The notes below the pieces were generated by a model, which did not search any database, was not told the origin of the DNA, and saw nothing but the letters and a program-made list of their open reading frames with translations. The position numbers and the translations under genes were made by a program. DNA of 39,787 nt, from the IMG/VR virus record IMGVR_UViG_3300012944_000017, positions 1-39,787 of that record, one strand, 5' to 3'. The stretch is from a virus. Below are positions 1 to 39,787 of the stretch, piece after piece. Each line of letters opens with the position of its first letter. Positions within the stretch are counted from its first letter, which is position 1.

Positions 1-109
1 CGGCGTGGAGCGCCTTCATCTTCGCCTTGAACGCCGGGTCGGCGTGGAGCGCCTTCATGCGCGCCCTGGCGCTCGCCTTGAACGCCGGGTCGGCGTGGAG
101 CGCCTTCAT
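1..109. repeat. Tandem direct repeats (39-nt and 51-nt units, both multiples of 3), copy set at the window start; same family as 39626-39787
   Basis: Read directly. The unit cggcgtggagcgccttcat + cttcgccttgaacgccgggt (39 nt) is at 1-39. A 51-nt variant with the insert gcgcgccctggcgctcgcc is at 40-90. A third partial copy is at 91-109. Nt 1-33 are identical to 39755-39787, and 1-109 are identical to 39665-39773. Confidence 0.95.
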
Positions 110-163
110 GCGCCGACGCCTCGCGGCATGACCGTCTGCGGTCCAGCGATAGGGCCTGGTCAC
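1..163 (-). CDS. 5' part of the tandem-repeat protein gene (MKALHADPAFKA[K/SARAR] repeats); it runs off the window start and is continued in frame by 39525-39787
   Basis: The minus-strand frame is open from the TGA at about 196. An ATG at 109 is preceded by GAGG 9 nt upstream. An alternative GTG at 163 would add VTRPYRWTADGHAARRRR, which looks like a degenerate repeat copy. The frame is continuous with the ORF at the window end if the ends are joined by the 33-nt overlap. Confidence 0.55.
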   Translation of the reverse strand, partial: MTRPYRWTADGHAARRRRMKALHADPAFKASARARMKALHADPAFKAKMKALHA

Positions 164-235: not shown

Positions 236-379
236 TCAGCGGCCCCGATTGCGACGCCGGCTTTCCTTCGCGAGCGCATTGCGTCGACGCTGGCGCTTGT
301 TGTTCGCCGCGAACCATCGCTGCTCGCCGGCGCTGTTACGCGGATCGCCGCGCGCGCTGTTCTTGCGGTGCATCGGCAT
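236..379 (-). CDS. 47-aa arginine-rich basic protein (MPMHRKNSARGDPRNSAGEQRWFAANNKRQRRRNALAKESRRRNRGR); below the ORF-track size cutoff
   Basis: My own translation. The ATG at 379 lies 4 nt after the stop of the upstream gene (383-385) and AAGGAA sits upstream. It fills an otherwise empty slot in a tightly packed operon. No family recognised. Confidence 0.35.
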   Translation of the reverse strand: MPMHRKNSARGDPRNSAGEQRWFAANNKRQRRRNALAKESRRRNRGR

Positions 380-382
380 AGG

Positions 383-784
383 CTATTCCTTCAACGCGAA
401 GGTCTCCTCCAGCATCCGCTGGATGTCGCTCGATCCGGGCGTCATCAGGCCGGCGCCATGTTTGATGTGCGTGTGCCAGTTCGCGAGCGCGGCGGCGCTC
501 GATATGGTGTGGTGCAGGGCCTTGTTCACATCGCCGTCGATGTGGGCTTTGAGTGCTTTACCTGCGAGGTAACCGATCAGCCAAAACCAGTCTTGCGGCT
601 GCTTGGCACGATCGCCGACGGTGCCCCAGCGTTGAATCTGGTGCCCAACCTCGCGCTGCACGCCGTCGAGAAAATCCATGACCTCGGGCGAATTGAGTAT
701 GTCGAAGGCTTCCATGGCTTCAACTTCCAGATCGTGCCGGTCCAGCGCTCCGATCCGTTTTTCATTTTCCTCGCGGCTGATCAT
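383..784 (-). CDS. Hypothetical 133-aa protein; possible degenerate all-alpha NTP-pyrophosphohydrolase (MazG-like) template
   Basis: The track ORF 383-883 is trimmed to the ATG at 784, which overlaps the TerS stop by 1 nt (TGATG). The segment QRWG..(12)..DWFWLIGYLAGKA...ALHHTISSAAALANW resembles phage MazG-like proteins, but the acidic EExxE-type motif is not visible. Confidence 0.55.
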   Translation of the reverse strand: MISREENEKRIGALDRHDLEVEAMEAFDILNSPEVMDFLDGVQREVGHQIQRWGTVGDRAKQPQDWFWLIGYLAGKALKAHIDGDVNKALHHTISSAAALANWHTHIKHGAGLMTPGSSDIQRMLEETFALKE

Positions 785-1329
785 CACTTCGGCCTTTTGT
801 AGGTGCTCGGGTAAATGTGCAGGTTCAGGCCGCTGGCGGCGAGCGGGTTCACGCTCTTGTGCATCGCGAGGATGCTCATGCACTGATCGAGCCCCTTGAG
901 CTTGTCGCGCAGCCGCACTTTGCGCACCATGCCCAACACGCGCCGGGGCTCGCCCTCCCCCTCACTGGGCCCGAAGATTTCCTCGTGCTCCACCCCTGCG
1001 ATCATGGCGCGCGCGTCGACGTCCATCTGCTGGATCGGCTTCAAGTTCCCAGCCTCGTCGAACAGCGCGCCCACATCCCCGTAGGCGACGCTCGCAATCT
1101 CGCGCATGGTGCGCTCGACCGTGATTTCATTCGATCGGCTGGCTTTGGCGACGATCTGCGCCAAGTGGTCGCGAACGTCAGCAAAAGTCAGCAATCTGGA
1201 GCCGCACACCTTGGCGGACTTGCGCGAGTAGCCTGCGCGGATCGCCGCCTGGGTGGCGTTGAAGTCCTTGGCGTATTCCTCGGCGAAGCGTCGCCGCTTG
1301 GCGTTCGCCGATGGGCCCCTCGCCGCCAC
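784..1329 (-). CDS. terS: Terminase small subunit (Terminase_2-like)
   Basis: The N-terminus KRRRFAEEYAKDFNATQAAIRAGYSRKSAKVCGSRLL matches the classic TerS HTH signature (F..eY....NatqAa..AGYs.ksA...g..LL). GTG start at 1329. Confidence 0.8.
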   Translation of the reverse strand: MAARGPSANAKRRRFAEEYAKDFNATQAAIRAGYSRKSAKVCGSRLLTFADVRDHLAQIVAKASRSNEITVERTMREIASVAYGDVGALFDEAGNLKPIQQMDVDARAMIAGVEHEEIFGPSEGEGEPRRVLGMVRKVRLRDKLKGLDQCMSILAMHKSVNPLAASGLNLHIYPSTYKRPK

Positions 1330-2880: not shown

Positions 2881-3140
2881 CACTCGTGCTTCCCGTTGCC
2901 GGCGATCGCCTCGCGCACCCCAGCGTTCACGGTGCGGGGACCTGCGGGGGCGGGCACGAAGTCCCAGCACGAATCGGTTGGTGTGACCGGCGGCCACACC
3001 CCGGCGAGGCCCATGCCGTTTTTGCCCTGCGGGATCAGGATCGCCTGCGGGGAGCGGCGGAAGCAATACAGCGCCACGGTGCCGAGCTGCTTGGCCTGGC
3101 GCGAGTGCTGGCATTCCCCACACGGCCCGCGCTCGCTCAT
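2880..3140 (-). CDS. Hypothetical Cys-containing protein (86 aa, CGEC...C...C)
   Basis: Track ORF. The ATG at 3140 overlaps the DUF1064-like gene stop (ATGA). Confidence 0.45.
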   Translation of the reverse strand: MSERGPCGECQHSRQAKQLGTVALYCFRRSPQAILIPQGKNGMGLAGVWPPVTPTDSCWDFVPAPAGPRTVNAGVREAIAGNGKHE

Positions 3141-3535
3141 CCTCGCACCTGCGCGCGCGTGAGAATCTGTACGCTGATCCCGTAGCGTTGAGCGACCACG
3201 GCCAACTTGACCCGCGCGGTATCGGTGAGAAACCCCTTGGTGTCCTCTACTGTGATTTTTTCCACTGTACCGCCGAGGTTCCAGACCACCAGGAAGTCGG
3301 CACGGTATATCACACCCGGCGCCACGTCAAAGGGCACCTGGCGCAAAAACCACTTCACCTCACCCGCGGCGCGCAGGAGTTTGAGCTCGCTGTAGCGGTC
3401 GGCCTCCAGCTTGGAGCGGAACTTGAGTCCATCGACGCATGTGACGCGATTGCCCATCCGCTCGCGCTTGGGGTGCACGCGGTAGGTCTCGAGCCGATCG
3501 AGGGCTTTGGTCCAGGCGCTCCGGGCTGATCCCAT
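3137..3535 (-). CDS. DUF1064-family PD-(D/E)xK-like nuclease (putative Holliday-junction resolvase type)
   Basis: VDGLKFRSKLEADRYSELKLLRAAGEVKWFLRQVPFDV...YRADFLVVW...VEDTKGFLT..ARVKLAVVAQRYG fits the DUF1064 pattern (G..FdSk.Ea.ry.eL..l...G.I......f.......Y..DF.v......v.E.KG). The start is set at the ATG at 3535, behind GGGGGAGGGAG; the track start at 3559 is a TTG. Confidence 0.65.
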   Translation of the reverse strand: MGSARSAWTKALDRLETYRVHPKRERMGNRVTCVDGLKFRSKLEADRYSELKLLRAAGEVKWFLRQVPFDVAPGVIYRADFLVVWNLGGTVEKITVEDTKGFLTDTARVKLAVVAQRYGISVQILTRAQVRG

Positions 3536-3559
3536 TCTCGGCTCCCTCCCCCTCGCCAA

Positions 3560-3669
3560 ACCGGATTTGCTCTATAAATCTTATTCTTAGGTCTTAGGAT
3601 TTAAGACTAAGAGGAGTCACTTGCGCGGCGCGTGAGATATCCACAGGCCAATGCTCAGGTCATCCACAG
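3560..3669. promoter_or_regulatory. Low-GC intergenic segment with CTTAG/CTAAG repeats, an inverted repeat (gtcttaggatttaagac) and three CCACAG(G) motif copies; candidate leftward promoter/operator region
   Basis: Read directly. ctctataaatcttattcttaggtcttaggatttaagactaagagg lies at about 3570-3613. atatccacagg is at 3637-3647 and catccacagc at 3661-3670. This is the only strongly AT-enriched tract on this side of the genome, and it lies immediately upstream of the long leftward gene string. Confidence 0.4.
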
Positions 3670-4038
3670 CTACCCCACAGGAACATCCCACGGCTGGCGC
3701 GCCGGCGGCCTGCGGTGCAGGTGATGGTCTTTGCAGTTCTGCGCTCGGGTCGTGATGTACACGTTCCCCACCGCATACGGGCCCAAATCGTACTTGCGGG
3801 CCAGCACCAAATCGGCCCTCAGACGGTCCGGCCAATAGGGGGCCCAGATGCCGCACCACTGCTGGAGGGTCAGCTCAATGGGAATGTTCCGCTGCTTAGC
3901 CGAGGCTCTCCAGGCGATATACCTGGAGCGCATCCAAGGGTTCCGCGGTTCAATGGGTCGACTGTCTGCCAGCAGGCTGCACGAACCATCCACAGGAATA
4001 TCCACAGGCGTGAAATGCGTCACAACTTGCTTAATCAC
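3670..4038 (-). CDS. Stand-alone HNH-like (degenerate) endonuclease / DNA-binding protein candidate (122 aa)
   Basis: RYIAWRASAKQRNIPIELTLQQW...LVLARKYDLGPYAVGNVYITTRAQN resembles phage HNH_3-type proteins (R..A..RgI.F.LT.eqw...L.ldRiD...gY...Nv...t...N), but the catalytic His positions are not obvious. The start is uncertain (GTG at 4038, no SD). GC is lower than in the surrounding sequence. Confidence 0.4.
   Translation of the reverse strand: MIKQVVTHFTPVDIPVDGSCSLLADSRPIEPRNPWMRSRYIAWRASAKQRNIPIELTLQQWCGIWAPYWPDRLRADLVLARKYDLGPYAVGNVYITTRAQNCKDHHLHRRPPARQPWDVPVG
3986..4008. promoter_or_regulatory. Two adjacent copies of the TCCACAGG motif (ccatccacagg, atatccacagg)
   Basis: atatccacagg at 3998-4008 is identical to 3637-3647. 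Related accccacagg copies are at 3672-3681, 4444-4453 and 5957-5966 (the last two sit in the two early promoter-like motifs). Confidence 0.5.
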
Positions 4039-5683: not shown

Positions 5684-5949
5684 ACGCGGTGCTCAAGGCC
5701 AAACCGCTGACGCCCACCATGGAGGCGTGTCTCGCGTTCATGCGGGGCGAGCCCGACCGATCCGTGCACCGGCACCGGGGCGGGGTCTGGAGCCGCTACG
5801 CCTTCACCTTCGAGCACGCCTGGCAGGCCGGCACCGTCGAGGCCCTGGTGACTCGCGGGCACGCGCACTACTCGGAGTTTCGCGACGGGCGCCTCACAGC
5901 CGATGGGCAGCAACACCCCTTTCCTGTCCGCTGCACACTCTCCGCTTGA
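5680..5949 (+). CDS. Early protein, unknown (89 aa)
   Basis: Track ORF with an ATGA overlap at its start. Its 3' end overlaps the second promoter-like motif. Confidence 0.5.
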   Translation: MNAVLKAKPLTPTMEACLAFMRGEPDRSVHRHRGGVWSRYAFTFEHAWQAGTVEALVTRGHAHYSEFRDGRLTADGQQHPFPVRCTLSA

Positions 5950-5977: not shown

Positions 5978-6001
5978 GCGTAAGGAAACCCAGGAGGTCA
6001 A

Positions 6002-6268
6002 ATGAGCGACACCACTGAAATCCGATTGAGCGACGGCACGGAGATAGACTTCTACCGCCAGAGCGCCACCAGGGCGCCGCACGGCTACGAGCTGCGCGGC
6101 CCTGGGTGCACCAACGCCACCGGCCGATTCAGCACCGGGATGCTTTGCTGGGATGGGGACATGCTGATCGACTTCGATGGCTCTTTCGAGCTGCCGGCCG
6201 AGGTCTGCGATGCGCTCGAGCGGATGGGTTACCGGCTCGATGAGTTCATCCGGCCGGAGGCCGCATGA
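6002..6268 (+). CDS. Early protein, unknown (88 aa), ends PEAA like 4490-5020
   Basis: Track ORF with a strong SD. It is the first gene after P2. Confidence 0.6.
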   Translation: MSDTTEIRLSDGTEIDFYRQSATRAPHGYELRGPGCTNATGRFSTGMLCWDGDMLIDFDGSFELPAEVCDALERMGYRLDEFIRPEAA

Positions 6269-6450: not shown

Positions 6451-6728
6451 GCGACTACGTCGCAATCGCGCGTGCCGCGGCCAAGGCGGCGAAGCGCGCC
6501 GAGCCCTCCCCGATGGAGCGGCTCCTCGAGAGCGCCGTCACTCATGGTGCTAGCGCCGTCACTCATGGTGCTGCGGAACCGGACAACCCACAGCACTGGC
6601 AAACGGTATCCAAGGCGGTACGCCTGGGGCTGCTCGATCTGGACCTGCGCCTTACGCAAGCCGGTCGCGCGGCCCTCGACAAGGAACATCAACGACGGGC
6701 GGTGACGCCGCCCCAGGAGGTCACTTGA
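6447..6728 (+). CDS. Early protein (93 aa) containing a perfect 7-aa duplication (SAVTHGA x2); C-terminus LTQAGRAAL resembles 5489-5683
   Basis: Track ORF with an ATGA overlap at its start. Confidence 0.55.
   Translation: MSDYVAIARAAAKAAKRAEPSPMERLLESAVTHGASAVTHGAAEPDNPQHWQTVSKAVRLGLLDLDLRLTQAGRAALDKEHQRRAVTPPQEVT
6531..6572 (+). repeat. Perfect 21-bp tandem duplication (agcgccgtcactcatggtgct x2), in frame
   Basis: Read directly: 6531-6551 is identical to 6552-6572. Confidence 0.95.
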
Positions 6729-14126: not shown

Positions 14127-17100
14127 CTATTGCGTCTGAGCGTGCCGCTCGGCGGCGCGCTGGGCTTCGGATTGGCCGGGCAGGTCAAAGGCGTCCCCGA
14201 TCGAGTCCTCGAGCTGGTTGATCCCGTGGCGCAAGTACCAGATGTTCTGCCCTGGGGCCATGCGGCGGAGGAAGTGCAGGTCGGAGCGCCTGAATTGCAG
14301 ATTGGCCTCCCCGCCTTCCTCATCCATGTTGGGGTTGCCGAAGATGCGGCCGGGGAACTGGCGCGTGTAGGCGCTCGCCACGGTGCCCGCGGTGGGCCCC
14401 AGCAACGTTTCGACCGGGTCGCGATCGGACCAACGCGAGAGGTTCTTCATGCCGAACTGCCAGAGCATCGGGAATAAGAACTGCCCGGTCCACCCGACCA
14501 GGTTGCTCTTGTCCACCACTTCGATCCCGAGGCGCGTGGGATCAGTCTCGATCGGCTGGTCGGCCACCTTCTGCTTGGTGTAATAAGCCAAGTACCCGGC
14601 GGCGAGCAGGCAGATGAGCGCCTGGGCGCTGCGGTAGTCCCCATGCGCCAGCCCTTGAGCGAGCGGGTTGACCACCGAGCGGCTCGCGGCAAAGGCAAAA
14701 CTCGTGAACTGCAAAATGGTCTTGCCCCATTCGGTCGACATCAGGCCCGGCGTGTCGCCCGCACCAGGGCGCAGCGTCACGCCGTGCGCGAAGCGCAGCA
14801 CCGCGGATTCAAATTTGGCCGCGAGCTTCTGGTCGTGCCAGAGCTCGGAAGCGCCGAACTGGAGCCCGCGGGCCTCCAATCCAAAGCGCCCGTGCTCCTC
14901 GGCGATGGCGGCGAGCTCATCGGTGCTTAAGCCCGCGCCGGCGAGCATCACTCGAATGCCCTTCGGCACCGTCTGCATGTTGGCGAGCTTGGCGGCGCTG
15001 CGCAGTATCTCGTCCTGGGCGAGCACGCCGGTCAAACCCTGCACCAGCGTGATCAGCGGGGTCTCACCGGTCAGGATCGTAAAGAAGCGCGTGGCGCGGT
15101 TCATGAGGCGCTGCTCGAGGTACTGGCTGTGCTGGGCGTAATCGCCGAGCATCGAGGCGGTGGCGTTCATGGTCATATCGAGCGCGGCCCCCATGCGCTG
15201 GGTCGTGTCGCGCGCGAGCTTGAACGCCTCCAGGCTCGTGCCCAATCGCACCATGGCACCGAAGGTGCGCGGCGCGCCGAACTTCAAGACGGTGTTGGCG
15301 ATGTCCGGGAAGTGAGCGAGGGTGGCCGCTCCCAGCAGGCGCAGTGCGTTCTCCCCACGGAGCAGGCGGGCCGCGCGCACAAAGAAACTGCCCGGATTTT
15401 TCGGCTGCCCGTAGATGCCATAGAGCCGATCGCGCATCAGCGCGATGTCCTTGAAGTCCTGGTTCTGCTGCTTGAGCAGATCGTTGGCCTTGCCCTCATC
15501 CCCGGCGGCGAGCGCGCGCTGCTTGAGCACCGCGTACTCATCGTTGATCCCCTCGAGCTGCTGCTTCAGGTCCCGGCTCCCGAAGCGCTCGGTGAACTCC
15601 ACCTCGGGCGCCATGGAGCGAAGGTAGGCGTGCGTGAGGTGGTTGATGTCCTGGTTTAGAAACGGCTCGAGCTTCTCATCCGGGAGCCGCAGCGTCCGCC
15701 CGGTCATCTGGCCGCTGTGCGGGACCCCATCGAGGATGTGCCAGTCCATGGTGCCGCGCTCACCTCCCAGCACATTGCGCGTCACATCGTGCGCGATGCG
15801 CTCGGCCTCGCCCCGCTGCTCGGCGGAGTCTTTGAACATGTCGGCGCGCGCCGGATCGCGCGCGAGCTGCTCCTCGAACGCATCGGTGAGGAGCGCGTGC
15901 CAGGCGGCCAGGTGCGCTCGGATCGCGCGCCCATCGTACTGGCGCATCAGATAGCTCTCGGCGTAGATGTCGGCCTGCGCGGGGATGAGCCCGGCTTTAA
16001 GCGCCCGCTCGTAGAGGGGCTGGAACACGGTGGCGCGGGTCTTGACCGCCGCGGTGGCCACTTCGGGGATGTCGCTCCGGTCCCCTCGGCGCATCGCAAA
16101 GCTCACCTGGCGATCCCACTCCTGGCGCGTGAGTGGGCTCCCACCCTCGGCGGCAAGACGCTGGCGGTAGGTCTTGAACAGCCGGCCGCGCTCGCGGAGC
16201 GATTGGTGCCAAATCCCGTCATAGCGCCACAGTTGCCGCTCGATCGGTGAGGGGCTGGGGACGCCACGGTAGTTCTCGTTGGTCAGCTCCGGGATGTTGA
16301 CCAATTCCTGGGTGAGCTGGCGCACCCGGAAGCTCGGGCTCCCCAGGGCCCGAAGGCCCGGTGCCACGCGGCCAATCGTGCCCTCGGCCATGATGCGCGC
16401 GCCTCGCCCTAAGCGCTTATCCTCCAGGTTCCCCGCTTCCGCGGTCCGGTACGGCGTGTCCGGCTCGCTGATCGCAAAGGGTGCGGCCGGCAATCTTGCC
16501 TCCGGGGCACTGTGGCCCATGATGTCCGGCTGCGGGTAGCTCACCGGGTAGGATCGCTGGCGGGTGGCGAGCGTTTGCAGGCCGGCGGCGCGCGCGCCGG
16601 TGATGCGGATTTGCCCGTAGGCATCCGTCATGAACATATCGGCGACGATGCCGCTGCGCGCGAGCGGCCGTGCCCCTTTGAGGTCCGCCTCCTTGCCCAC
16701 CAAAAACACATGGCCGCCGGCGCCGGCCTCGCGCTGGATGCGCCGGATGCGGGCGAGTGCCGGCACGCCGCCCTTCTCCGACCCGCTCAGCATGTCCTTT
16801 GGGAAATCAGCCAGCACCTTGCTGAACCCGCGCGAGTCCGTCGCGATCAACGTCACATTGCCGGGCGCCACCTCGAGCTGCTTGGCCACCACGGCGAGCT
16901 GCTCGGGGCTCTCCACTTTGGCGGCGAGCAGCGGGTGGGCGAGCGTCGGGTTCACGTACGGATCGGAGTAGCCACCCAGGTGCGGGGCGCTCACGACGCG
17001 CGACTCCCCGTGCCCTTCGATGTGCCCGTAGCTGTTGCGATTGACAATGATGTGGCCCTTAAAGCCGGGAACCACGTTCGCCGCTCGGGTCGTGAACATC

Positions 17101-20100
17101 ACATCCTGCATCGAGGGCTCAGGGTTCCCGCTCGGGTGGTTGTGCTGCATCCAGTAGCCAGTGGCCCCGTGCAGGCGCATGGTGCTGGCGAGCGTGTCGA
17201 GCCAGCCGGAGGAGAAGCTCACGGCGCCGGCGAGGCGGGAGGTGCCTCCGTACTGGTGCACGATCGCGCCGCTGTCGTCGGTGAGAAAGAAGCGCAGGGT
17301 CTCAAAGCGCCGGTCTCGGTACACCTGCGCGAGCGCGGCGAAATCACCGGGCGTGCGCGGGTGCTGGCCCACAAGTGAGAGGTGGCCCTGGGCGGTGAAC
17401 TCGCGGGTGAGACCGTTCGCCAGTATGGACGCGCCGGCGTTGGAGTCGCGGCGCGCCAGGAGCGATCCGAGAGCGGCTCGGCCGAGCGCCACTTGCGTGC
17501 GGCTCGTCGTGGCACGAGTCTCGATGTGCGGCGCGAAGTCGAAGGCGATCTGTCCATCGGCGGCGGTGACGCTCTTGCCCTTGTAGCCGCGCGTGGGCTC
17601 GGCAACCGTTTCCGGTTCCTCTGGTGCCGGCTCCCCGCGCAATCCGAATAGGTCACCGGAGCGCGGCACCACGGCGTGGCGCATGAGCTCGGCGGGGCTG
17701 AAGGCTTCGGTGGAAAAGAGGCTCGCCTGATCGGTGCGCTGTGCGATCGCCGCATCGGCGTATTTCTCGAGTGCCGCGGCCGCCTTGTCCCGTCCCACCA
17801 GGCGTCCGTCGACTGAGTAGAACGCGCGCACCGCCAGTGACTTCGGCGCGAACATATCCGCGGTGGCCAGGTGCTCGGCGAGCGAGGTGCCACTGGCCCG
17901 GAGCTTGGCGACATCCTCCACCGCGCTCACGATGGCAGGGGTGATGTCGAATCGTTCATCCACGGTGCCGTCGGCGATCGCCTGACGGAGCTTGGCAAAT
18001 TTCGGGGCCGCATCCTGCAAGGCATTGAGCGTGGACTTCATCGAGTCGTCCGTGCTCTCGAGCATCCGGCCCAAGGTCACGTTGCTCGCTTCCGTTCCGC
18101 CGTACGCCTTGGCGAGGATCGCGGCCTGCAATCGCGCTTCACCGGCCTGGCTCAGTACGTTGTGCGCATCGACGTAGGCGTTGCGCTCGCTCGCCGGGAT
18201 CAGCTCCGCGAACGCGCGCACGAAGGGCGCGTTGGCCACAGTGGTGAGCTCGCCGGGCTGGAGCTTATCCATCGTGATCGCATCGAGGTTGTGCGCATCG
18301 GCCTGTGCTCGCTCGACCGGTGAGAGGCTGCCGACGCTGGTGGAATTCGCCTCGATCGCAAACTGCTGGCGCTCGGTGGGGGACAGGGCGCTGGTGCGCT
18401 CGCGCACCAGCACCGGCGCCTTCATGCCCTTCACGTCGTACCCCAAACTCTCGAGGTGCGCGCGGTACGCGGCCGCCTTCTCGGGACTGTTGGCGTAGCG
18501 GCCCTCGTACACCTGGCGCAGTGCCATGACGCGACCGTTGCCGCTTTCGACGGCGTTGTCGGGCCCGACGATCGGTGCGCCGCGGTCCGCCTCTGGTGCG
18601 GCGCCGAGCTGCTCGGGGTTCAAGCGCATCGCGATGTCCGCGACCTGCGCCTCGCTCGAGGCGCGACCCTTGCGATCGCGCGGCTGGAGGCCGGCGGGGT
18701 AGTTGGGATTTTCGGAGGTGAGGAGGTCGACCGCTTCAACGAGCTTGTGGCGCACCTCGATGCGCCGCCCCGCGGCGGTGAGTACCTGCTCTACTCGTGG
18801 ACGGGGAACACCACCGGCACCGGGCTCGCGTTGCTGCGCGCCTCGCTCTCCTGCTCCGCCAGCGCCTTCTGCGCCGCCTCCGGTGGGTAGGGTTTCGGGG
18901 CCGAGGCCAGCTCCGCGTCCAGCTTCGCCTGGTGGGGCCGCAGGCCCGTAGAGCTCGGCAAATGTGGTCGCTTTTTCATTCAGGTTGCCCTTTCGGACGA
19001 ACTCATTATAGCTCTCCGGCAGGTGGATGACCAGCCCCGCGGCACTCCCAAGCCTCTGTTCCGCCATGATTTTTGCCGGCGTTCCACGTGGAACGTTATT
19101 GTCCAGCAACCGGCTGTGCTCGAACAAATGGGCCCGCTCCGCCCACCCCAGGGCGTGCTCCTTGTGGGCCTTCAACATCGCATCGGTGGGCACGTAGCGC
19201 TTCTCGGGCCCCTCGGCGCGCTTGACCATGCGCACCACCGCGCTGTCGGGGTGGACCGAGACCGCCACCTCGTGCACTTCGTACCCCGCGTCCTTCAACG
19301 CCTGCACTTCGATGCGCGCCTTGGCCGGGTCCGAGAGCGTGCGATCGAGGATCAGGTGGTAGCGCCCCTCGATGGCGCGGCGCAGCGCCTGGTCGTAGAG
19401 GAGCTTCGATTCATCGTGCGTCACGGCCGCAGCGCGCGAATCGCCTGCGGCCACGATCTGCTTGTACTCGGGGAGCCCATCCAGCCCCTTCTTCTCGTGT
19501 CCGGTCTTGAACTCGTCCGGGTCGAGCTCCACCGCGCCCTTCGGCAACTGGCCCGCGGCGGCGAGTGATTTCTTGACCGTGCCCTTGCCCGACGCGCCGC
19601 CACCGGAAAAGAAGATCGCCACGGGCTTGGCTTGGCCGGCGATCGCGCCGGCGAATCGCTGGTCGATCAACCGCTCGCGCAGCTCCAGGCGCTCCGGGCT
19701 CACGTTGTTGGCGTGGCTGAGGAGCAGCTCGTGCCCCTGGGGCAGGGTGATGGGCGGCTCGGCGAGCCCGAAGTTCGCGAGCTCGAAGTGCTCGGGGGCG
19801 ATGCGGGTGGCGAGTGACCGTCGCAGGTCCTCGTGCAGCGCGTGCGTGAGCGGTGGCGTGCGCTCGGTTTCGGTAGGTGCCTGCGCGACTGGTTGACGTT
19901 CCGCGCCCTCCGTCGGCTTTGGTTGCGCGGCGTCGCTGACAACCGGCGGGGTGAGCTCTGGGCTGAGCGGCACGGGCTCGGTGGGCTCTGGCGTGTGCGC
20001 CGCCGCGACCGCGGCGCGCGCCGCCTCCTCGGCTTCCTGCTCCTGGGCGCCGGTGTGCTCGGCCAACTGGCGCGTGAGGTCCTGGTGCTCGGCTTGCAGG

Positions 20101-21200
20101 CTCTGAAGCTGTGCTTCGAGGGAGGCGCGGCGCTCATCGATGTTGGCGGTCGCGCGCTCGGCGAGCACCTCGGCGGTGCGCGCGCCATACCGACGCTCGA
20201 GGGCGGCCAGCACTGAGGGCGGATGCTTGAGGCGCTCGAGCTCCGTGGCGATCGCCTGCTCCCGATCCCCCAAGGTCCCCTGAATCTGCGCGCTGGTGGC
20301 CTGTAGCTCCGCCTGGCGGGCTGTGGCGGCCGCCGGCTCGAAGGGTGTCACTGACCCGCCTTTCCCGCTCGGGCGCTCTGGCGCCTTCGGGACAGCGGCC
20401 TGGGCGGCATTGCGCAGGTCCGCAGCAATGTCGGCCGCGTCCGAGGTCGGGGGCGGGTGAAACGGCCAGGGGCCCGGCGGGACGGCATTGCCGCGCTGGG
20501 CGCCGAAGATGTCCTCGGCACTCCCTGCCGGCGGCACATTGGCCAGCTCGCGGGTGGCGGCGGTGCGCAAGCGATTCACTTCCCCTCGCCCGCCGATCAG
20601 GCCGCCTAAGGTCCCACCGAGCAGGGCCGAGGCGGCGATGCCCGCCGCCTCCTGCCCGGCGCTCTCCGGGCCCTCGTGGAGGGATTTCAGGGCCTCCTGT
20701 TCGGCCAGGCTCGTGCCCGCCCCGATGAGGGCGAGCTGCGCCATGCGCGCCAGGCGCGCCTCGGCGGTGATGGGGATCGCCATGGCCGTGATCGAAAACG
20801 GGTCGAGCAGGCCCGCTCCGATTTCGGCGATCGTGCCCACCTTGCCGGCACTGCGGAGGGTCTTTTCCACTGCGGCGCGATGATCGAGGCGAGTCTCGGT
20901 GCGCAGCATGTCCTGCGGGCTCTCATCGAGCGCGAACGCCTCCTGGTGCATCTGGTACTCGGGCTTGATGTGCGCCAGCGGGTCGAAGCCGGCCACCGCT
21001 TCACCGGGCGGCAATCGCTTGTCGAGGTCCTGCTCGTAGTGCCGTTGCGCAAAGTAGTTGCTGCTCTGGAAGGCCGCGCGCGTGACATCCCAGCCCGATT
21101 GGTACTGCTCGGGCTCCGGCGCCCCGCTGGGGCCGCGCGGGGGGAGCGCATACGCCGGGGCGTCGAGCTGCGTGTCCGTACCGGCGGGGTCAAGTGGCAT
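14127..21200 (-). CDS. Giant internal virion / DNA-ejection protein (2,357 aa), polyvalent: Zeta-like kinase + ParB-like + RadC/JAB modules
   Basis: This is the largest ORF. It sits in the T7 gp16 position, after gp14/gp15-position proteins and before the tailspike. The embedded motifs are listed as separate features. The C-terminal third is helical, with a TM-like segment (ALICLLAAGYLAYY). Confidence 0.8.
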   Translation of the reverse strand: MPLDPAGTDTQLDAPAYALPPRGPSGAPEPEQYQSGWDVTRAAFQSSNYFAQRHYEQDLDKRLPPGEAVAGFDPLAHIKPEYQMHQEAFALDESPQDMLRTETRLDHRAAVEKTLRSAGKVGTIAEIGAGLLDPFSITAMAIPITAEARLARMAQLALIGAGTSLAEQEALKSLHEGPESAGQEAAGIAASALLGGTLGGLIGGRGEVNRLRTAATRELANVPPAGSAEDIFGAQRGNAVPPGPWPFHPPPTSDAADIAADLRNAAQAAVPKAPERPSGKGGSVTPFEPAAATARQAELQATSAQIQGTLGDREQAIATELERLKHPPSVLAALERRYGARTAEVLAERATANIDERRASLEAQLQSLQAEHQDLTRQLAEHTGAQEQEAEEAARAAVAAAHTPEPTEPVPLSPELTPPVVSDAAQPKPTEGAERQPVAQAPTETERTPPLTHALHEDLRRSLATRIAPEHFELANFGLAEPPITLPQGHELLLSHANNVSPERLELRERLIDQRFAGAIAGQAKPVAIFFSGGGASGKGTVKKSLAAAGQLPKGAVELDPDEFKTGHEKKGLDGLPEYKQIVAAGDSRAAAVTHDESKLLYDQALRRAIEGRYHLILDRTLSDPAKARIEVQALKDAGYEVHEVAVSVHPDSAVVRMVKRAEGPEKRYVPTDAMLKAHKEHALGWAERAHLFEHSRLLDNNVPRGTPAKIMAEQRLGSAAGLVIHLPESYNEFVRKGNLNEKATTFAELYGPAAPPGEAGRGAGLGPETLPTGGGAEGAGGAGERGAQQREPGAGGVPRPRVEQVLTAAGRRIEVRHKLVEAVDLLTSENPNYPAGLQPRDRKGRASSEAQVADIAMRLNPEQLGAAPEADRGAPIVGPDNAVESGNGRVMALRQVYEGRYANSPEKAAAYRAHLESLGYDVKGMKAPVLVRERTSALSPTERQQFAIEANSTSVGSLSPVERAQADAHNLDAITMDKLQPGELTTVANAPFVRAFAELIPASERNAYVDAHNVLSQAGEARLQAAILAKAYGGTEASNVTLGRMLESTDDSMKSTLNALQDAAPKFAKLRQAIADGTVDERFDITPAIVSAVEDVAKLRASGTSLAEHLATADMFAPKSLAVRAFYSVDGRLVGRDKAAAALEKYADAAIAQRTDQASLFSTEAFSPAELMRHAVVPRSGDLFGLRGEPAPEEPETVAEPTRGYKGKSVTAADGQIAFDFAPHIETRATTSRTQVALGRAALGSLLARRDSNAGASILANGLTREFTAQGHLSLVGQHPRTPGDFAALAQVYRDRRFETLRFFLTDDSGAIVHQYGGTSRLAGAVSFSSGWLDTLASTMRLHGATGYWMQHNHPSGNPEPSMQDVMFTTRAANVVPGFKGHIIVNRNSYGHIEGHGESRVVSAPHLGGYSDPYVNPTLAHPLLAAKVESPEQLAVVAKQLEVAPGNVTLIATDSRGFSKVLADFPKDMLSGSEKGGVPALARIRRIQREAGAGGHVFLVGKEADLKGARPLARSGIVADMFMTDAYGQIRITGARAAGLQTLATRQRSYPVSYPQPDIMGHSAPEARLPAAPFAISEPDTPYRTAEAGNLEDKRLGRGARIMAEGTIGRVAPGLRALGSPSFRVRQLTQELVNIPELTNENYRGVPSPSPIERQLWRYDGIWHQSLRERGRLFKTYRQRLAAEGGSPLTRQEWDRQVSFAMRRGDRSDIPEVATAAVKTRATVFQPLYERALKAGLIPAQADIYAESYLMRQYDGRAIRAHLAAWHALLTDAFEEQLARDPARADMFKDSAEQRGEAERIAHDVTRNVLGGERGTMDWHILDGVPHSGQMTGRTLRLPDEKLEPFLNQDINHLTHAYLRSMAPEVEFTERFGSRDLKQQLEGINDEYAVLKQRALAAGDEGKANDLLKQQNQDFKDIALMRDRLYGIYGQPKNPGSFFVRAARLLRGENALRLLGAATLAHFPDIANTVLKFGAPRTFGAMVRLGTSLEAFKLARDTTQRMGAALDMTMNATASMLGDYAQHSQYLEQRLMNRATRFFTILTGETPLITLVQGLTGVLAQDEILRSAAKLANMQTVPKGIRVMLAGAGLSTDELAAIAEEHGRFGLEARGLQFGASELWHDQKLAAKFESAVLRFAHGVTLRPGAGDTPGLMSTEWGKTILQFTSFAFAASRSVVNPLAQGLAHGDYRSAQALICLLAAGYLAYYTKQKVADQPIETDPTRLGIEVVDKSNLVGWTGQFLFPMLWQFGMKNLSRWSDRDPVETLLGPTAGTVASAYTRQFPGRIFGNPNMDEEGGEANLQFRRSDLHFLRRMAPGQNIWYLRHGINQLEDSIGDAFDLPGQSEAQRAAERHAQTQ
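17030..17310 (-). other. RadC-like JAB/JAMM domain inside the giant protein
   Basis: FETLRFFLTDDSGAIVHQYGG...GYWMQHNHPSGNPEPSMQDVMFT contains the RadC/JAMM signature HNHPSG..xPSxxD. Confidence 0.7.
18420..18750 (-). other. ParB/Sulfiredoxin-like (ParB-type nuclease/NTPase) domain inside the giant protein
   Basis: LQPRDRKGRASSEAQVADIAMRLNPEQLGAAPEADRGAPIVGPDNAVESGNGRVMALRQVY matches the pattern seen in DarB-type polyvalent proteins (lQ.RDR.r..S..Qi..IA..ldP..L........GaPIv.....VeSGNgR..AL). Confidence 0.65.
19090..19710 (-). other. Zeta-toxin-like P-loop kinase domain inside the giant protein
   Basis: The Walker A motif is KPVAIFFSGGGASGKGT (DNA about 19578-19625). It is followed by ELDPDEFK, THDESKLL, HLILDRTLS and RYVPTD, an order typical of the Zeta/PezT-type kinase fold. 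Confidence 0.65.
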
Positions 21201-30048: not shown

Positions 30049-30966
30049 TTACCGCGACCAGATTTGCGTGACGCGCTTTTCCTCGAGCCGCGTGGCCCCT
30101 GCGGTCATGAACACGTACGCCTGCCAGGGCTCGGACTGCAAATCGTTGCGCTGGCTGATGTTGGTGCTGATGGCGTTCCACACGCCCAGGTGCATCCCCT
30201 CGCGCTGCCACATGAACACCTTGGTCGAGGTGCCGGCCTGATCGTCCGTCCCGGTGGCCAGGCGCTCGGAGCGCACGAAGGTGATCCCGAGGAATCGCTT
30301 GACGCGCCCCTCCTCGAGCACCGGCTGGTCGTTGAAGTCACGGCTGATGACCTGCGCCTCGGCCATGAGATTGTCGAGCTGGCGCGCCCCGGCGACGCAC
30401 ACCAGGCCCGAATTCGGATCGCCTGGGTCCTCCTCATCGTCCGAGTACGCCTCGTTCTGCGTGAGGATGAGCTTGCCCTGGCGGAGCTTCGCGACCGTGA
30501 GGCCGGTAGGCGCGGTCGCGCCCTGATTGACACTCACGATTTCACCGGCCGGCAGCACGATGGCGTTGCCACCATTCACTCCGGTCTGCGCCGTGCCGCC
30601 CAGCGCCGTGATGATCAGATCGTCGTACTGGCGATTGGCCGCGTTGTGGGCGTTCTTGACGAATTTACCCTTCGGGTCAATCAGCAGGCGGAGCTTGTCG
30701 AAGTTGTCGAACAACTGCGGCAAATCGTAATCGGAGGGGTAGACCCAGCGCCGATCGGTCGCCGCGTCCACGCGCTGCATCGGGCCGTATCGCTGCGTGA
30801 CGGGCTGCATGGCCACCGCGCCCACCTGCTCAACGGGGCTCGCGGCCTGGCCCACGTACTTATCTTCGGTGACGAACTTTCGGAGCCGACTGGTCTTTTG
30901 CTGAACCAGCTCGTTCAGGGTCTTGGCGTACTGCTGAACGTAGAACGTGACAATGTTGGTAGACAC
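30049..30966 (-). CDS. Major capsid protein (HK97-fold, BPP-1/Phage_capsid_2-like, 305 aa)
   Basis: Assigned by size and by position after the scaffold. It has a strong SD (GGAGG) before the GTG at 30966 and is flanked by stem-loops. The sequence resembles podovirus MCPs (MSTNIVTFYVQQYAKTL...DKYVGQAASPVEQVG...). Confidence 0.7.
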   Translation of the reverse strand: MSTNIVTFYVQQYAKTLNELVQQKTSRLRKFVTEDKYVGQAASPVEQVGAVAMQPVTQRYGPMQRVDAATDRRWVYPSDYDLPQLFDNFDKLRLLIDPKGKFVKNAHNAANRQYDDLIITALGGTAQTGVNGGNAIVLPAGEIVSVNQGATAPTGLTVAKLRQGKLILTQNEAYSDDEEDPGDPNSGLVCVAGARQLDNLMAEAQVISRDFNDQPVLEEGRVKRFLGITFVRSERLATGTDDQAGTSTKVFMWQREGMHLGVWNAISTNISQRNDLQSEPWQAYVFMTAGATRLEEKRVTQIWSR

Positions 30967-34591: not shown

Positions 34592-36268
34592 CTACGCTCC
34601 TTGCGGAATGGTGGGAGCGCCAGGCCCCGTCCCCTGCCCGCCGGCAATCTGCGCGGCCTTGGCAAGACTCAGCGCGCTCGTGGACACGCTCGGGGCCGCG
34701 GCGAGCGCCGCGGTCTCCTGCTGCTGCTTCGCGGCCTGCTCCATGAGCGCCTGAATCTGCTCCTCGGTGCGCAGGAGCTTGGGCGGCGTGCCGCGGATCA
34801 TCGACATGGCGCGCGCCGCGTCGTGGAAATCCATGATGTATTTCACGCTCGGGTCGATCTGCGCCATGACCCCGAGGTCCTGCACGGTGTTCATGATCGC
34901 AGTCCCCTCCTCCGCGCGCTGCGCTCGGGCCAGGGGGCTCGTGTATTCAATCCGCATCCCGCGCTTGGAGCGCATCAGCGCCTCCGGCGGGGGCGGCAAC
35001 ACCCGCGCTTCACTTAAGAGGTCAATCTCTCTGTGGACTTGCGGCCCCAAAAACTCGGTCTGCTGCCGACCCATTTCCGGGGCGAGGAGCTCGCCCTTCT
35101 CCTGGGCGTGGATGAGGGCTTGGGTCGCGGTGATGGGCTCGCCGTTCCGGGTCGCGTCCACCAAAATCTGAAACAGCGTGTTGAGGAACGTGTCCTTGAT
35201 CGCACCGCGGGTGTCGGTGAGCATGTCCTTTTCGATCTGCCAGTTCCCCTTGCTCTCGAACGGCATGGCGAGTGGCTTCCCATCGCTCGTCATCATGCCG
35301 TAGTTATTGGCGCCGGGGCGCTGGTTGAAGTTGGTCAGCACCCCATCCTCGGCCAGGAGGATGGGCGGGTCGACCGCCTTCTGGCCCATGCGGAGCGCGG
35401 TCTTGACCATTTCATTGGCGGTGCGGATGTCGGGGAGGCACGTGGTGGCTGGCCCTCGGCCGTAGCTCTCGCGCGGTGCCACGCGGTAGCGCCCGATCGC
35501 GCAGGGGAAAGTGCGGTAGCCACCGCACTCGATCACCGATTGGTCGCCCAGGAATACGTACCAGCTCTCAAAGGCCATGCCCTTGGGGCCATAGCCGCCG
35601 GCCACCTGGTGGTAGTTGGGACGGATGCAGTGCAGGTACTCGGCTTCCGTGTACGGCGCGCTCTCGAAGGTGCGCTGGATGCCCAAGGGGATATTGGCCT
35701 TGCCCTTCCAGTGCTGGATCGCCTGCTTGGCGGTGTAGCGGAACTTGCGGTACACCGTGTCGACCATACCCTGGTGGTTCACCGCCCAGCACAATTCGGA
35801 GAGCGGCCAGGCGCGATACCGGAGGTTCCCTTTGCGGAGGTCATCGTCGATAAAGAGCACGTTGTTGCCAAACGCGCCGAGTGAGAGGTAGCACACATCG
35901 GTCTGCGCCGCGTAGCCCGCCTCGGGGTGGTAGCGGGCGGCAAAGAGAATCTTGTTGACCGCATCCAGGTACTTTTGCACCGTCGGGTCGTCCTCGAGCT
36001 CCTCATCGTCGGGCTTGAGCTTGTGCCACACCTGGCTCGAGGGGGTGAGCATCGCGGTCATGGCCGCGGCGAAGCGTTGGTTGGCAATCACGCCGGTGGA
36101 ATCGAAGATGCGGGTGTTGCGATTGACCCCTTCGGCGAACTCGCCAATAAAGTTGTCGTTCGCGGGCATCACGAACTGCGCGGCGGTGTTCCAGAGGTTG
36201 CGGAAGTTGCTTTGCTTCTGCCACAGCGCCTGGTAGTCGCTGATCAGGCTCTTGGCATCATCGCTCAC
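34592..36268 (-). CDS. Portal (head-to-tail connector) protein, podovirus type (558 aa)
   Basis: Assigned by size and by position between the terminase and scaffold regions. The N-terminus DYQALWQKQSNFRNLWNTAAQFVMP and its general similarity to T7 gp8-class connectors support the call. Confidence 0.75.
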   Translation of the reverse strand: MSDDAKSLISDYQALWQKQSNFRNLWNTAAQFVMPANDNFIGEFAEGVNRNTRIFDSTGVIANQRFAAAMTAMLTPSSQVWHKLKPDDEELEDDPTVQKYLDAVNKILFAARYHPEAGYAAQTDVCYLSLGAFGNNVLFIDDDLRKGNLRYRAWPLSELCWAVNHQGMVDTVYRKFRYTAKQAIQHWKGKANIPLGIQRTFESAPYTEAEYLHCIRPNYHQVAGGYGPKGMAFESWYVFLGDQSVIECGGYRTFPCAIGRYRVAPRESYGRGPATTCLPDIRTANEMVKTALRMGQKAVDPPILLAEDGVLTNFNQRPGANNYGMMTSDGKPLAMPFESKGNWQIEKDMLTDTRGAIKDTFLNTLFQILVDATRNGEPITATQALIHAQEKGELLAPEMGRQQTEFLGPQVHREIDLLSEARVLPPPPEALMRSKRGMRIEYTSPLARAQRAEEGTAIMNTVQDLGVMAQIDPSVKYIMDFHDAARAMSMIRGTPPKLLRTEEQIQALMEQAAKQQQETAALAAAPSVSTSALSLAKAAQIAGGQGTGPGAPTIPQGA

Positions 36269-38052: not shown

Positions 38053-39525
38053 TCACGTCAAAGAGTACGCCGGTCGGATGCGCTTTGCACCTAGTTGACC
38101 TCGGAGCACCACCCGGCCCTCCCCGCACCCGAGCATCCGGTACTGATCGGCCTCGCACACATGGGAGACCGAGTTCTTGTCCGGCTTGTCGTGGTATCGC
38201 TCATCGCCCACGATCTGCACGCGGCGGAAGCGGTACATGCCGGCGAGGCCCCGGCGGAGCGTGGGGCAGCCGTGCTCGTGGACTTGAAAGCCCACCTCCC
38301 CGTCAATGATGCGCATCATGGCCTGGGCGTGCGCCTCGCGGCGCACCGTGAACTCGTTGGTGTGCGCGGGCTTCGCATCCACCCCGTTGGCCTTGAGGAT
38401 TTTAAAACACGTGTCCTCGATATTGTGCTCGCTGTCGGCATCGCCGGCGGGGTCCCCGGTGATGCTCGAGATTTCAAAGTTCGGCACCCGTTCCTCGATG
38501 AACCCCTTGAGTACCACGGCGAACTGCTTGGCACCCATGTGCTCGGTCACCACCTCCCAGCGCACCCTGTGAATACCGGTGAAGGTGCGCTGGCCGATGG
38601 TGGCGGCCGGCGTGTTGCCAAAATCGATCCCGATCGAGAGGGGCAGGCGCGGGTTAAATTCAAAGAGCTTGACGTGCAGGCTCTCGCGGAACTCGGGGTA
38701 CACCGGGCGCCCATCCTGCACGAAGCCATACTCGCCGCGGATGTAGACTTTCTTCCACTCCTCGCTCTTTCCCGCACTCGCCTTGGCGTAGTAGTCACTC
38801 GGCAGGTTGACTCGGTTCTCCGCATCCGGTGAGTTGGCATCGGGCTGGGCGTGGAACTCGAACAAGGGCTGGTTGCGCTTGAGGAGCCCGGCGGCGCGCA
38901 TTTCCTTCTCCGCATCGATCACCGACTGCACGAGGTCGGCATTGCGCTGGCTCGAGGTGTCGCGCTCGGCGAGCACGTACCACCAGTGATCGACCTCCGG
39001 CGGGTTGGTGTCCATGATGATCTGCGGGTTCACACACCCGCCATCCCGCTTCGGGGGAAAGCGGCCCACGCGACCGGTGAGCCCATCGATCAGGCTTTTG
39101 CCCACTTCCCGAGCCTCGTTCACCCACGCGGCGGTGAGCTCCATGCCTAAGACCTTGCGCACGTCCTTCGGGCGATCGAGGGATACAAAGAGCACCTCCA
39201 TGTCGATGTTGTCATCGATGATGTGGTGCGTGGGTGGGCCGCTCGCGCGCCAGTGCCCGACCGATTCTGGAATCCACTGGTGCCAGGTCTTGATGGTCGT
39301 GGTCGTGAGCTCTGGATACGTGTTGCGGATCACCGCAATGCGCGAGTGCTTGCGCCCATCGGCCTGCACCACTTGCGCGTTGGCGATCTTGATGAGCTTC
39401 ATGACCGCCGCGGTGCTCTTGCCCGATCCGATCGGCCCGCGGATGCCGTCGATGAACGCCTCGGAATCTAGGAACGCATCGGCCACGGGCCCAGGGCTGA
39501 TGTAGTGGTACTCAGCGACCGTCAT
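38053..39525 (-). CDS. terL: Terminase large subunit (490 aa)
   Basis: Walker A is GPIGSGKST. The signature IRNTYPELTTTTIKTW is present. The Walker B-like motif is LTAAWVNEA. The C-terminal nuclease region includes ITGDPAGD. The start is set at the ATG at 39525, which overlaps the upstream stop by 1 nt (TAATG); the track ORF extends to 39615. Confidence 0.85.
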   Translation of the reverse strand: MTVAEYHYISPGPVADAFLDSEAFIDGIRGPIGSGKSTAAVMKLIKIANAQVVQADGRKHSRIAVIRNTYPELTTTTIKTWHQWIPESVGHWRASGPPTHHIIDDNIDMEVLFVSLDRPKDVRKVLGMELTAAWVNEAREVGKSLIDGLTGRVGRFPPKRDGGCVNPQIIMDTNPPEVDHWWYVLAERDTSSQRNADLVQSVIDAEKEMRAAGLLKRNQPLFEFHAQPDANSPDAENRVNLPSDYYAKASAGKSEEWKKVYIRGEYGFVQDGRPVYPEFRESLHVKLFEFNPRLPLSIGIDFGNTPAATIGQRTFTGIHRVRWEVVTEHMGAKQFAVVLKGFIEERVPNFEISSITGDPAGDADSEHNIEDTCFKILKANGVDAKPAHTNEFTVRREAHAQAMMRIIDGEVGFQVHEHGCPTLRRGLAGMYRFRRVQIVGDERYHDKPDKNSVSHVCEADQYRMLGCGEGRVVLRGQLGAKRIRPAYSLT

Positions 39526-39787
39526 TAGGAAAGGGCCTGTTGAAGCGCCTCGCGTTGGCCCACGCCATGATCGCGCAGCACGAAATAGCGCCGCAGTTCG
39601 GTCTTGCTGAGCCAATCCCTGTGCTCGGCGTGGAGCGCCTTCATCTTCGCCTTGAACGCCGGGTCGGCGTGGAGCGCCTTCATCTTCGCCTTGAACGCCG
39701 GGTCGGCGTGGAGCGCCTTCATGCGCGCCCTGGCGCTCGCCTTGAACGCCGGGTCGGCGTGGAGCGCCTTCATCTTCGCCTTGAACG
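39525..39787 (-). CDS. 3' part of the tandem-repeat protein gene (…MKALHADPAFKAK x n … EHRDWLSKTELRRYFVLRDHGVGQREALQQALS); the 5' part is at 1-163
   Basis: Track ORF 39525-39773. The frame stays open to the window edge and is in phase with 1-109 across a 33-nt end overlap. The periodic ALHADPAFKA repeat is faintly reminiscent of the short DNA-binding repeats (…ADPEFRAK…) seen in NUMOD-type homing-endonuclease proteins; this comes from memory and is unverified. Confidence 0.6.
   Translation of the reverse strand, partial: FKAKMKALHADPAFKASARARMKALHADPAFKAKMKALHADPAFKAKMKALHAEHRDWLSKTELRRYFVLRDHGVGQREALQQALS
39626..39787. repeat. Tandem direct repeats (39, 39, 51, then 33 nt truncated by the window end)
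   Basis: Read directly: 39626-39664 is identical to 39665-39703; 39704-39754 is the 51-nt variant; 39755-39787 is identical to nt 1-33. Confidence 0.95.

Follow-up and report, generated by a model that had tools for sequence, protein, structure and literature searches.

Between the genes for the small and large terminase subunits (terS and terL) of the phage analysed here lies a gene built largely of near-perfect direct repeats, and the question raised by this locus is whether the array takes part in DNA packaging, as a protein or as a DNA site, or belongs to a different kind of system. The window (the whole stretch of DNA that was analysed, 39,787 nucleotides) is a complete podovirus-like phage genome, in which tail proteins and a 2,357-aa internal virion protein are encoded besides the virion and terminase genes given in Table 1. 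A blastn comparison of the terL region with deposited phages rendered distant Burkholderia podoviruses only (the BcepC6B group).

Structure of the locus and of the repeat array

Once the terminal overlap is removed, the repeat gene comprises 130 codons on the minus strand. The array has the order A-B-A-B-B (51/39/51/39/39 nt) and is followed by a degenerate sixth unit; the 51-nt units encode MKALHADPAFKASARAR and the 39-nt units MKALHADPAFKAK, all of them in frame, and identity among copies is 100% within the 51-nt class and within the 39-nt class. A unique 33-aa tail (EHRDW...QQALS) follows the MKALHA of the sixth unit, and the stop codon of the gene overlaps the ATG of terL (39525-39523) as TAATG. 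The first-pass annotation of this DNA had described near-perfect repeats of 39 and 51 nt, always in frame, as well as the TAATG overlap, and both agree with the measured identities and coordinates; its count of about six units plus a 33-aa tail holds for the tail and for the six positions, but five of these are perfect and the sixth is degenerate.

Table 1. Features of the window discussed in the text, with their positions and strands
Feature	Position	Strand	Remarks
Portal	34592-36268		
Major head protein	30049-30966		
terL (490 aa)	38053..39525	-	Terminase_3, phrog_2, PBSX-type model
terS (181 aa)	784..1329	-	Terminase_2, E=1e-28
133-aa accessory gene	383..784	-	phrog_25267 (unknown function), E=1e-26
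47-aa very basic ORF	236..379	-	Gene status uncertain
Repeat-protein gene, 5' part	1..163	-	GTG start 163-161, N-terminus MTRPYRWTADGHAARRRR, units 1-2, first 19 nt of unit 3
Repeat-protein gene, 3' part	39525..39754	-	Rest of unit 3, units 4-5, degenerate unit 6, tail, stop TAA 39527-39525
Array unit 1	109-59	-	51 nt
Array unit 2	58-20	-	39 nt
Array unit 3	39773-39723 (part 39773-39755 duplicates 19-1)	-	51 nt
Array unit 4	39722-39684	-	39 nt
Array unit 5	39683-39645	-	39 nt
Array unit 6, degenerate (MKALHAE...)	from 39644	-	
Terminal overlap, exact copy of 1-33	39755..39787	.	Assembly artefact of circular or permuted genome

The most likely start of the gene is the GTG at 163, which precedes the first ATG by 17 codons. 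This start is favoured because the N-terminal sequence that it adds fits the motif xRxYRxS of the homologues, which have N-termini such as MARTYKWSAEGLAKRQAR, MTRTYRWTEEGLARRKAA and MSRTYRISPDKLAARAAR and keep the motif in P0019, P0044, P0018, P0071 and P0080. The GC3 of the repeat gene is 0.885 in frame, and the two alternative frames have values of 0.66 and 0.49. A scan of positions 1-2700 for promoters and terminators detected none on the minus strand, so that co-transcription of the repeat gene with the late operon is likely, and the stop/start overlap indicates that the gene is probably both co-transcribed and translationally coupled with terL. So tight a coupling to terL is unusual for the repeat family, and it could reflect a local packaging role.

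The two ends of the window, positions 1-33 and 39755-39787, are identical and both lie inside the array. This 33-nt identity is an assembler-type overlap: when it is trimmed, a circle of 39,754 nt is obtained, and an untrimmed end-to-start join creates a spurious 33-nt unit (MKALHAAFKAK). The assembler appears to have broken the contig in the array because of its near-identical repeats. A single further contig of this phage was found, an independent one from JGI (1,098 nt) that matches positions 38626-39722 at 99.9% identity; it likewise stops within the array, and many homologues are found on short contigs that end in their own repeats. In search of an assembly that reads through the array, one of its unique flanks was scanned for exact matches in IMG/VR and the opposite flank in JGI metagenome contigs, with no hits in either; the number of units is not fixed by the assembly, five full units being the minimum that fits both contig ends. 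The gene had been described as spanning the genome junction, and it does cross the contig ends, but it does so because the contig broke within the repeat and not because of a biological terminus. An apparent genome junction within a repeat can thus be an assembly effect, which is a lesson for annotation.

All homologous genes that were examined have units with identical or almost identical DNA sequences within the gene, and between genes the units differ mainly at synonymous sites; over the 12-codon core, for example, L032 and the window show six synonymous and two non-synonymous differences. Alleles with identical flanks vary in unit number, with two, three or four units in the P0009 group and two to six in the MARIDPERAA group, a variation to which assembly collapse could contribute. 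Near-identical units of this kind would arise by unequal recombination or slippage, and, as judged from these comparisons, the array is a coding tandem repeat that undergoes concerted evolution while being constrained at the protein level. The recent expansion or homogenisation that had been proposed from the window alone is supported by all three observations, namely the near-identical units of each gene, the synonymous divergence between genes and the alleles of two to six units. The identity of the units at the DNA level needs no explanation as a packaging (pac) site, since it is seen whatever the genomic position.

The repeat family and its proposed relation to NUMOD3

The repeat that defines the family, (R)MKAL[HN]ADP[EA]FKA, is present in 2-6 copies per member, and the family is unnamed. 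A database search for the 13-aa repeat, which the first-pass annotation had suggested, rendered 89 homologues with the window protein as query, all of them small unnamed metagenomic proteins, and 341 with the consensus of the commoner Glu variant, again all small and unnamed. A profile search of 1.84 billion representatives detected 966 clusters (50% identity) at E<=1e-3, of which 244 reach E<=1e-10. The spacing of the units is quantised: among 342 spacings, 202 were of 17 aa, which is the mode, 94 of 21 aa and 24 of 13 aa. The flanks of the arrays are modular and include an N-terminal HTH (HTH_23, sigma70_r4), a Cx4-5Cx7-8CxxC motif and HTH-like tails at the C-terminus, as well as coiled coils or zinc ribbons. 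An alignment with 18 homologues defines the subfamily of the window protein, which has xRxYRxS as its head and LSxxQRKxYxKLRxxGxxRxxAxxEA as its tail; according to this alignment and to the profile search, the window protein has the N-terminal motif, at least two (R)MKAL[HN]ADPxFKA units and the two-helix tail of about 30 aa that characterize it.

The structure predicted by AlphaFold2 with the subfamily alignment (pLDDT 87.6, pTM 0.47) contains one helix per unit, each beginning at the Pro that follows Asp (residues 9-24, 26-41, 43-54, 56-71, 73-84 and 86-100), and two helices in the tail (105-116 and 121-129); because the pTM is low, the arrangement of the helices relative to each other is undefined. 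The protein contains 30 Lys+Arg versus 11 Asp+Glu residues and has a pI of 11.2. Foldseek comparison of the model with the PDB gave nothing better than E=4.5, and neither a PDB sequence search with the whole protein nor a search with a profile of the tail gave anything meaningful. Pfam, PHROGs and NCBIfam rendered no match above threshold for the repeat protein, and the sub-threshold matches to STI1 DP, GerD, GBP_repeat, DUF7623 and Terminase_6 look compositional.

The relation of the repeat to homing endonucleases was found in the longer members of the family, many of which are GIY-YIG homing endonucleases. P0118 has a GIY-YIG domain (SegE_GIY-YIG, 26.1 bits, above the cutoff) followed by AKWADPEYRAK repeats, and P0123 and P0129 resemble it by eye, without Pfam support. 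With P0118 as query, 925 relatives were obtained. Proteins P0159, P0161, P0168, P0171 and P0172 bear ARMKALHADPEFRAK-type arrays and are about 50% identical to P0118 over the whole protein, and P0179, P0181, P0184 and P0189 bear classical NUMOD3 arrays (PF07460; GRKHSPETREKMSESQR) and are about 50% identical to it over the catalytic part. The NUMOD3 arrays of these relatives have the same 17-aa period, and several of the proteins are named 'group I intron endonuclease' by their sources. Furthermore, P0203 holds both ADPEF-type and NUMOD3 repeats, and P0174 alternates intermediate forms. Among the 55 representatives that bear the repeat and are 200 aa or longer, 15 matched GIY-YIG, the other matches among the same 55 being sigma70_r4 (three), LEM-3 GIY-YIG (two), SegE GIY-YIG, NUMOD1 and I-HmuI NUMOD-like (one each). 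The enzymes that combine GIY-YIG with ADPEF repeats are free-standing genes in phage replication modules, which are like the neighbourhoods of the nuclease-free proteins.

NUMOD3 is a minor-groove-binding helix that works with an HTH module in I-TevI, I-BmoI and I-HmuI (PMC3664794). The repeat described here is like the NUMOD3 of these enzymes (PF07460) in its modal 17-aa spacing, in having one helix per unit and in its position C-terminal to GIY-YIG; among related enzymes the two repeats replace each other, and in one protein both are present. As expected for NUMOD3, it is a short repeated helix placed C-terminally in GIY-YIG/HNH homing endonucleases. HTH or Cys4 modules stand before or after the array, as in the I-TevI order of Zn finger, minor-groove helix and HTH (PMC3664794). 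The two repeats differ in their consensus, DPEFKAKxSARMKAL[HN]A versus SPETRAKMSxAxxGKK for NUMOD3: the one described here is devoid of the conserved Gly-Lys turn, has its helix capped by Asp-Pro, and occurs also in 13- and 21-aa versions. Unlike the GIY-YIG/HNH homing endonucleases, the window protein bears no nuclease domain, and a search across the window for a GIY-YIG domain, even a decayed one (tblastn of ten domains, Pfam), rendered none outside the repeats themselves.

When the 17-aa consensus units were compared (DPEFKAKHSARMKALHA versus SPETRAKMSAANRGRKL), the proposed register was the best of the 17 circular registers, with a permutation P of about 0.02 for units that were picked by pattern, and hhalign of double units, ADPEF-type versus NUMOD3, gave P=2e-4 with unit sets chosen by hand-written patterns. 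The PF07460 NUMOD3 model matched neither the window protein at E<=1 nor ten ADPEF-type proteins at E<=10. As these statistics are modest, the link between both repeats is only suggestive at the level of the unit sequence, and the positional and combinatorial evidence for it is stronger than the unit-sequence statistics.

The terS/terL junction and the alternative explanations

For comparison, 25 loci with genes for TerL relatives were taken from IMG/VR, nine of them with a TerL 67-80% identical to that of the window. The repeat gene, the 133-aa gene and the 47-aa ORF were detected by tblastn in none of the 25, including these nine. In most close relatives terS directly adjoins terL. A Terminase_2 terS abuts terL in L006, L012 and L009, and both genes are also adjacent in the distantly related BcepC6B. 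What adjoins terL in L005, L007 and L016 is a short alternative small ORF, and in L008 and L011 about 460 and 850 nt, respectively, of unrelated small ORFs separate terS and terL. As the relatives differ in their intervening ORFs, the terS/terL junction of this group of phages is a spot of variable insertions, and by this comparison the three intervening genes of the window are lineage-specific cargo. Three genes had been reported between terS and terL; the three ORFs are indeed present, but no homologue supporting the 47-aa one was found by profile searches or by tblastn of the TerL-related loci. On the other hand, seven homologues of the repeat protein come from long contigs, where they occupy early, replication or accessory regions, with DNA methylase (twice), ParB_N plus a Mu-type transposase, RecT/YqaJ, primase and DUF7768 as neighbours, and none of the seven is beside terL or terS.

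These results bear on the two proposals of the first-pass annotation, namely that the protein is a repeat-type DNA-binding factor used in packaging and that the array is itself the pac or TerS-binding site. A packaging accessory factor would bind phage DNA near the packaging start and aid recognition or bending by TerS/TerL. The position of the gene between terS and terL, with its stop overlapping the terL start, the basic and helical nature of the protein and a weak sub-threshold match to a TerS family (PF23931, Terminase_6; E=0.004, 18.1 bits versus a cutoff of 27) are consistent with this, but the match is not repeated in ten other members, a normal Terminase_2 TerS is already encoded, and the gene is missing from all the TerL relatives and stands away from terminase genes on the seven long contigs, so that we regard such a factor as distinctly unlikely. 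Repeated boxes are used by some pac phages (SPP1, P1), and perfect direct repeats next to terminase genes could form a site of this type, the reading frame being incidental. This is extremely improbable, since relatives with a TerS of 48-54% identity do not have the array, hundreds of homologues keep the frame as a protein while their genes differ mostly at synonymous sites, the GC3 of the frame stands out from those of the other two frames, and the same within-gene homogeneity is seen at loci far from any terminase gene. A search for alternative pac boxes around terS rendered only short two-copy matches at chance level. In its packaging-operon position, its small basic helical product and its direct DNA repeats the locus is like small terminase subunits and pac repeat boxes (SPP1 G1P type, Terminase_2), but the window has its own TerS, neither the array nor the gene is conserved in the 25 loci with homologous terminases, and the family is unlinked to terminase elsewhere. 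The comparative evidence is therefore against a packaging component or a pac site, neither of which is supported; what stands of the proposals is DNA binding, which the arrays of GIY-YIG enzymes and the pI make plausible. Location beside a terminase gene alone does not imply a packaging role.

Two other explanations concern the protein. It could be a protein-binding helical repeat like the DP domain of STI1/HOP, for example an adaptor or an inhibitor of a host or phage protein, as the short Asp-Pro-capped helices resemble DP repeats and a match to PF17830, below the cutoff (28.2 versus 29.1 bits), recurs in some members. We consider this unlikely: the matches to GerD and GBP_repeat show that matches of this kind are compositional, which the near-threshold DP score probably is as well, and both the strongly positive net charge and the fusion partners of the family, overwhelmingly GIY-YIG nuclease, HTH and Cys4 modules and not chaperone-type domains, point to nucleic-acid binding. 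It could also be the case that the gene is a decaying, functionless remnant of a homing endonuclease whose nuclease domain was lost. Decay is common among homing-endonuclease genes, the window has no GIY-YIG domain and the gene is at a variable insertion spot, but the intact frame with its strong GC3, the specific N-terminal motif and tail kept across many unrelated contigs, and the hundreds of nuclease-free members with defined architectures make a remnant very improbable.

Proposed nature of the repeat protein

On balance, the gene probably encodes a free-standing NUMOD3-like protein, whose DNA binding we infer, that is, a nuclease-free arm encoded by an accessory gene upstream of terL. Each 13- or 17-aa unit would form one alpha-helix starting at the Pro of the Asp-Pro cap, and five and a half such helices would be followed by a short two-helix C-terminal module. 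The repeat would be a divergent variant of the NUMOD3-type 'nuclease-associated modular DNA-binding' helix, the arm of GIY-YIG homing endonucleases, which in the window protein would stand alone, with no nuclease domain. By analogy with I-TevI and I-BmoI, the helices may lie along the DNA, mainly in the minor groove, the tail may add a second DNA contact and the number of units may set the length of the footprint. The gene itself would be an accessory one, inserted at the variable terS/terL junction in this lineage only, and its product could be a regulator, a competitor or immunity factor against related endonucleases, or a local packaging helper. A more far-reaching proposal, which we think fairly improbable, is that nuclease-free ADPEF/NUMOD3-like arrays are widespread length-tunable minor-groove binders, which sit on the sites targeted by related GIY-YIG enzymes, resulting in immunity or exclusion between phages or in repression of nearby genes; gain or loss of units would retune the footprint, and in this phage the packaging operon would have acquired one such array, which would be expressed with terL.

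The analysis links small phage proteins without a name, which form about 1,000 clusters (50% identity), to the modular arms with which GIY-YIG homing endonucleases bind DNA, and a second type of repeat is defined that takes the place of NUMOD3 and escapes current Pfam models. If DNA binding holds true, these proteins would be natural DNA-binding arrays tunable by copy number, which could regulate mobile endonucleases or compete with them.

Unit variation across the repeat family

Among the homologous proteins bearing the repeats (P0001-P0157), the spacing of the units is quantised at 13, 17 or 21 residues, each step being roughly one turn of a helix. Most of these proteins mix ALHADP and ALNADP units, the His and Asn codons of which (CAC and AAC) differ by one base, whereas the units of the window protein carry only His. 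In several nuclease-free members a Cx4-5Cx7-8CxxC motif is found at the N-terminal start, immediately preceding the repeats, and an HTH-like tail at the C-terminal end (P0007, P0009, P0027, P0050, P0090, P0095, P0136 and P0145).

The array in other contigs and repeat-rich genes elsewhere

An independent metagenomic contig of the window phage, L039 (JGI 3300015052; 1,098 nt), is 99.9% identical to window positions 38626-39722, and its end also falls inside the array. Two separate ADPAF repeat arrays are present in another contig, L002, at 5705-5884 and 5986-6183, with ca. 100 nt between them, and only the second lies within a called gene (P0026); they may represent a tandem gene pair or a longer gene that is frameshifted. 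A related phage, L009 (TerL 67% identical), bears an ORF (3057-3785) made of cysteine/serine repeats of the CS[DRG]CS type, ca. 1.2 kb upstream of its terminase genes, so that this part of its genome, too, holds a gene rich in repeats.

Other features of the window, including the gene next to terS

A single ORF takes up 18% of the genome (see table). Elsewhere, Tandem Repeats Finder detected a 21-nt unit, AGCGCCGTCACTCATGGTGCT, perfectly duplicated in tandem at 6531-6572.

Coordinates of two further genes in the window
Feature	Position	Strand	Context	PHROG match
Internal virion protein with endolysin-type domain (2,357-aa ORF)	14127-21200	(-)		phrog_342, phrog_16310
133-aa accessory gene	383-784	(-)	between terS and repeat gene	phrog_25267

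No copy of the accessory gene was found by tblastn in any of the 25 IMG/VR loci with a related TerL. Its product matches only positions 312-391 of the 421-position profile of phrog_25267, a family of unknown function; from this partial alignment, the gene seems to encode, on its own, one domain of a larger phage protein.
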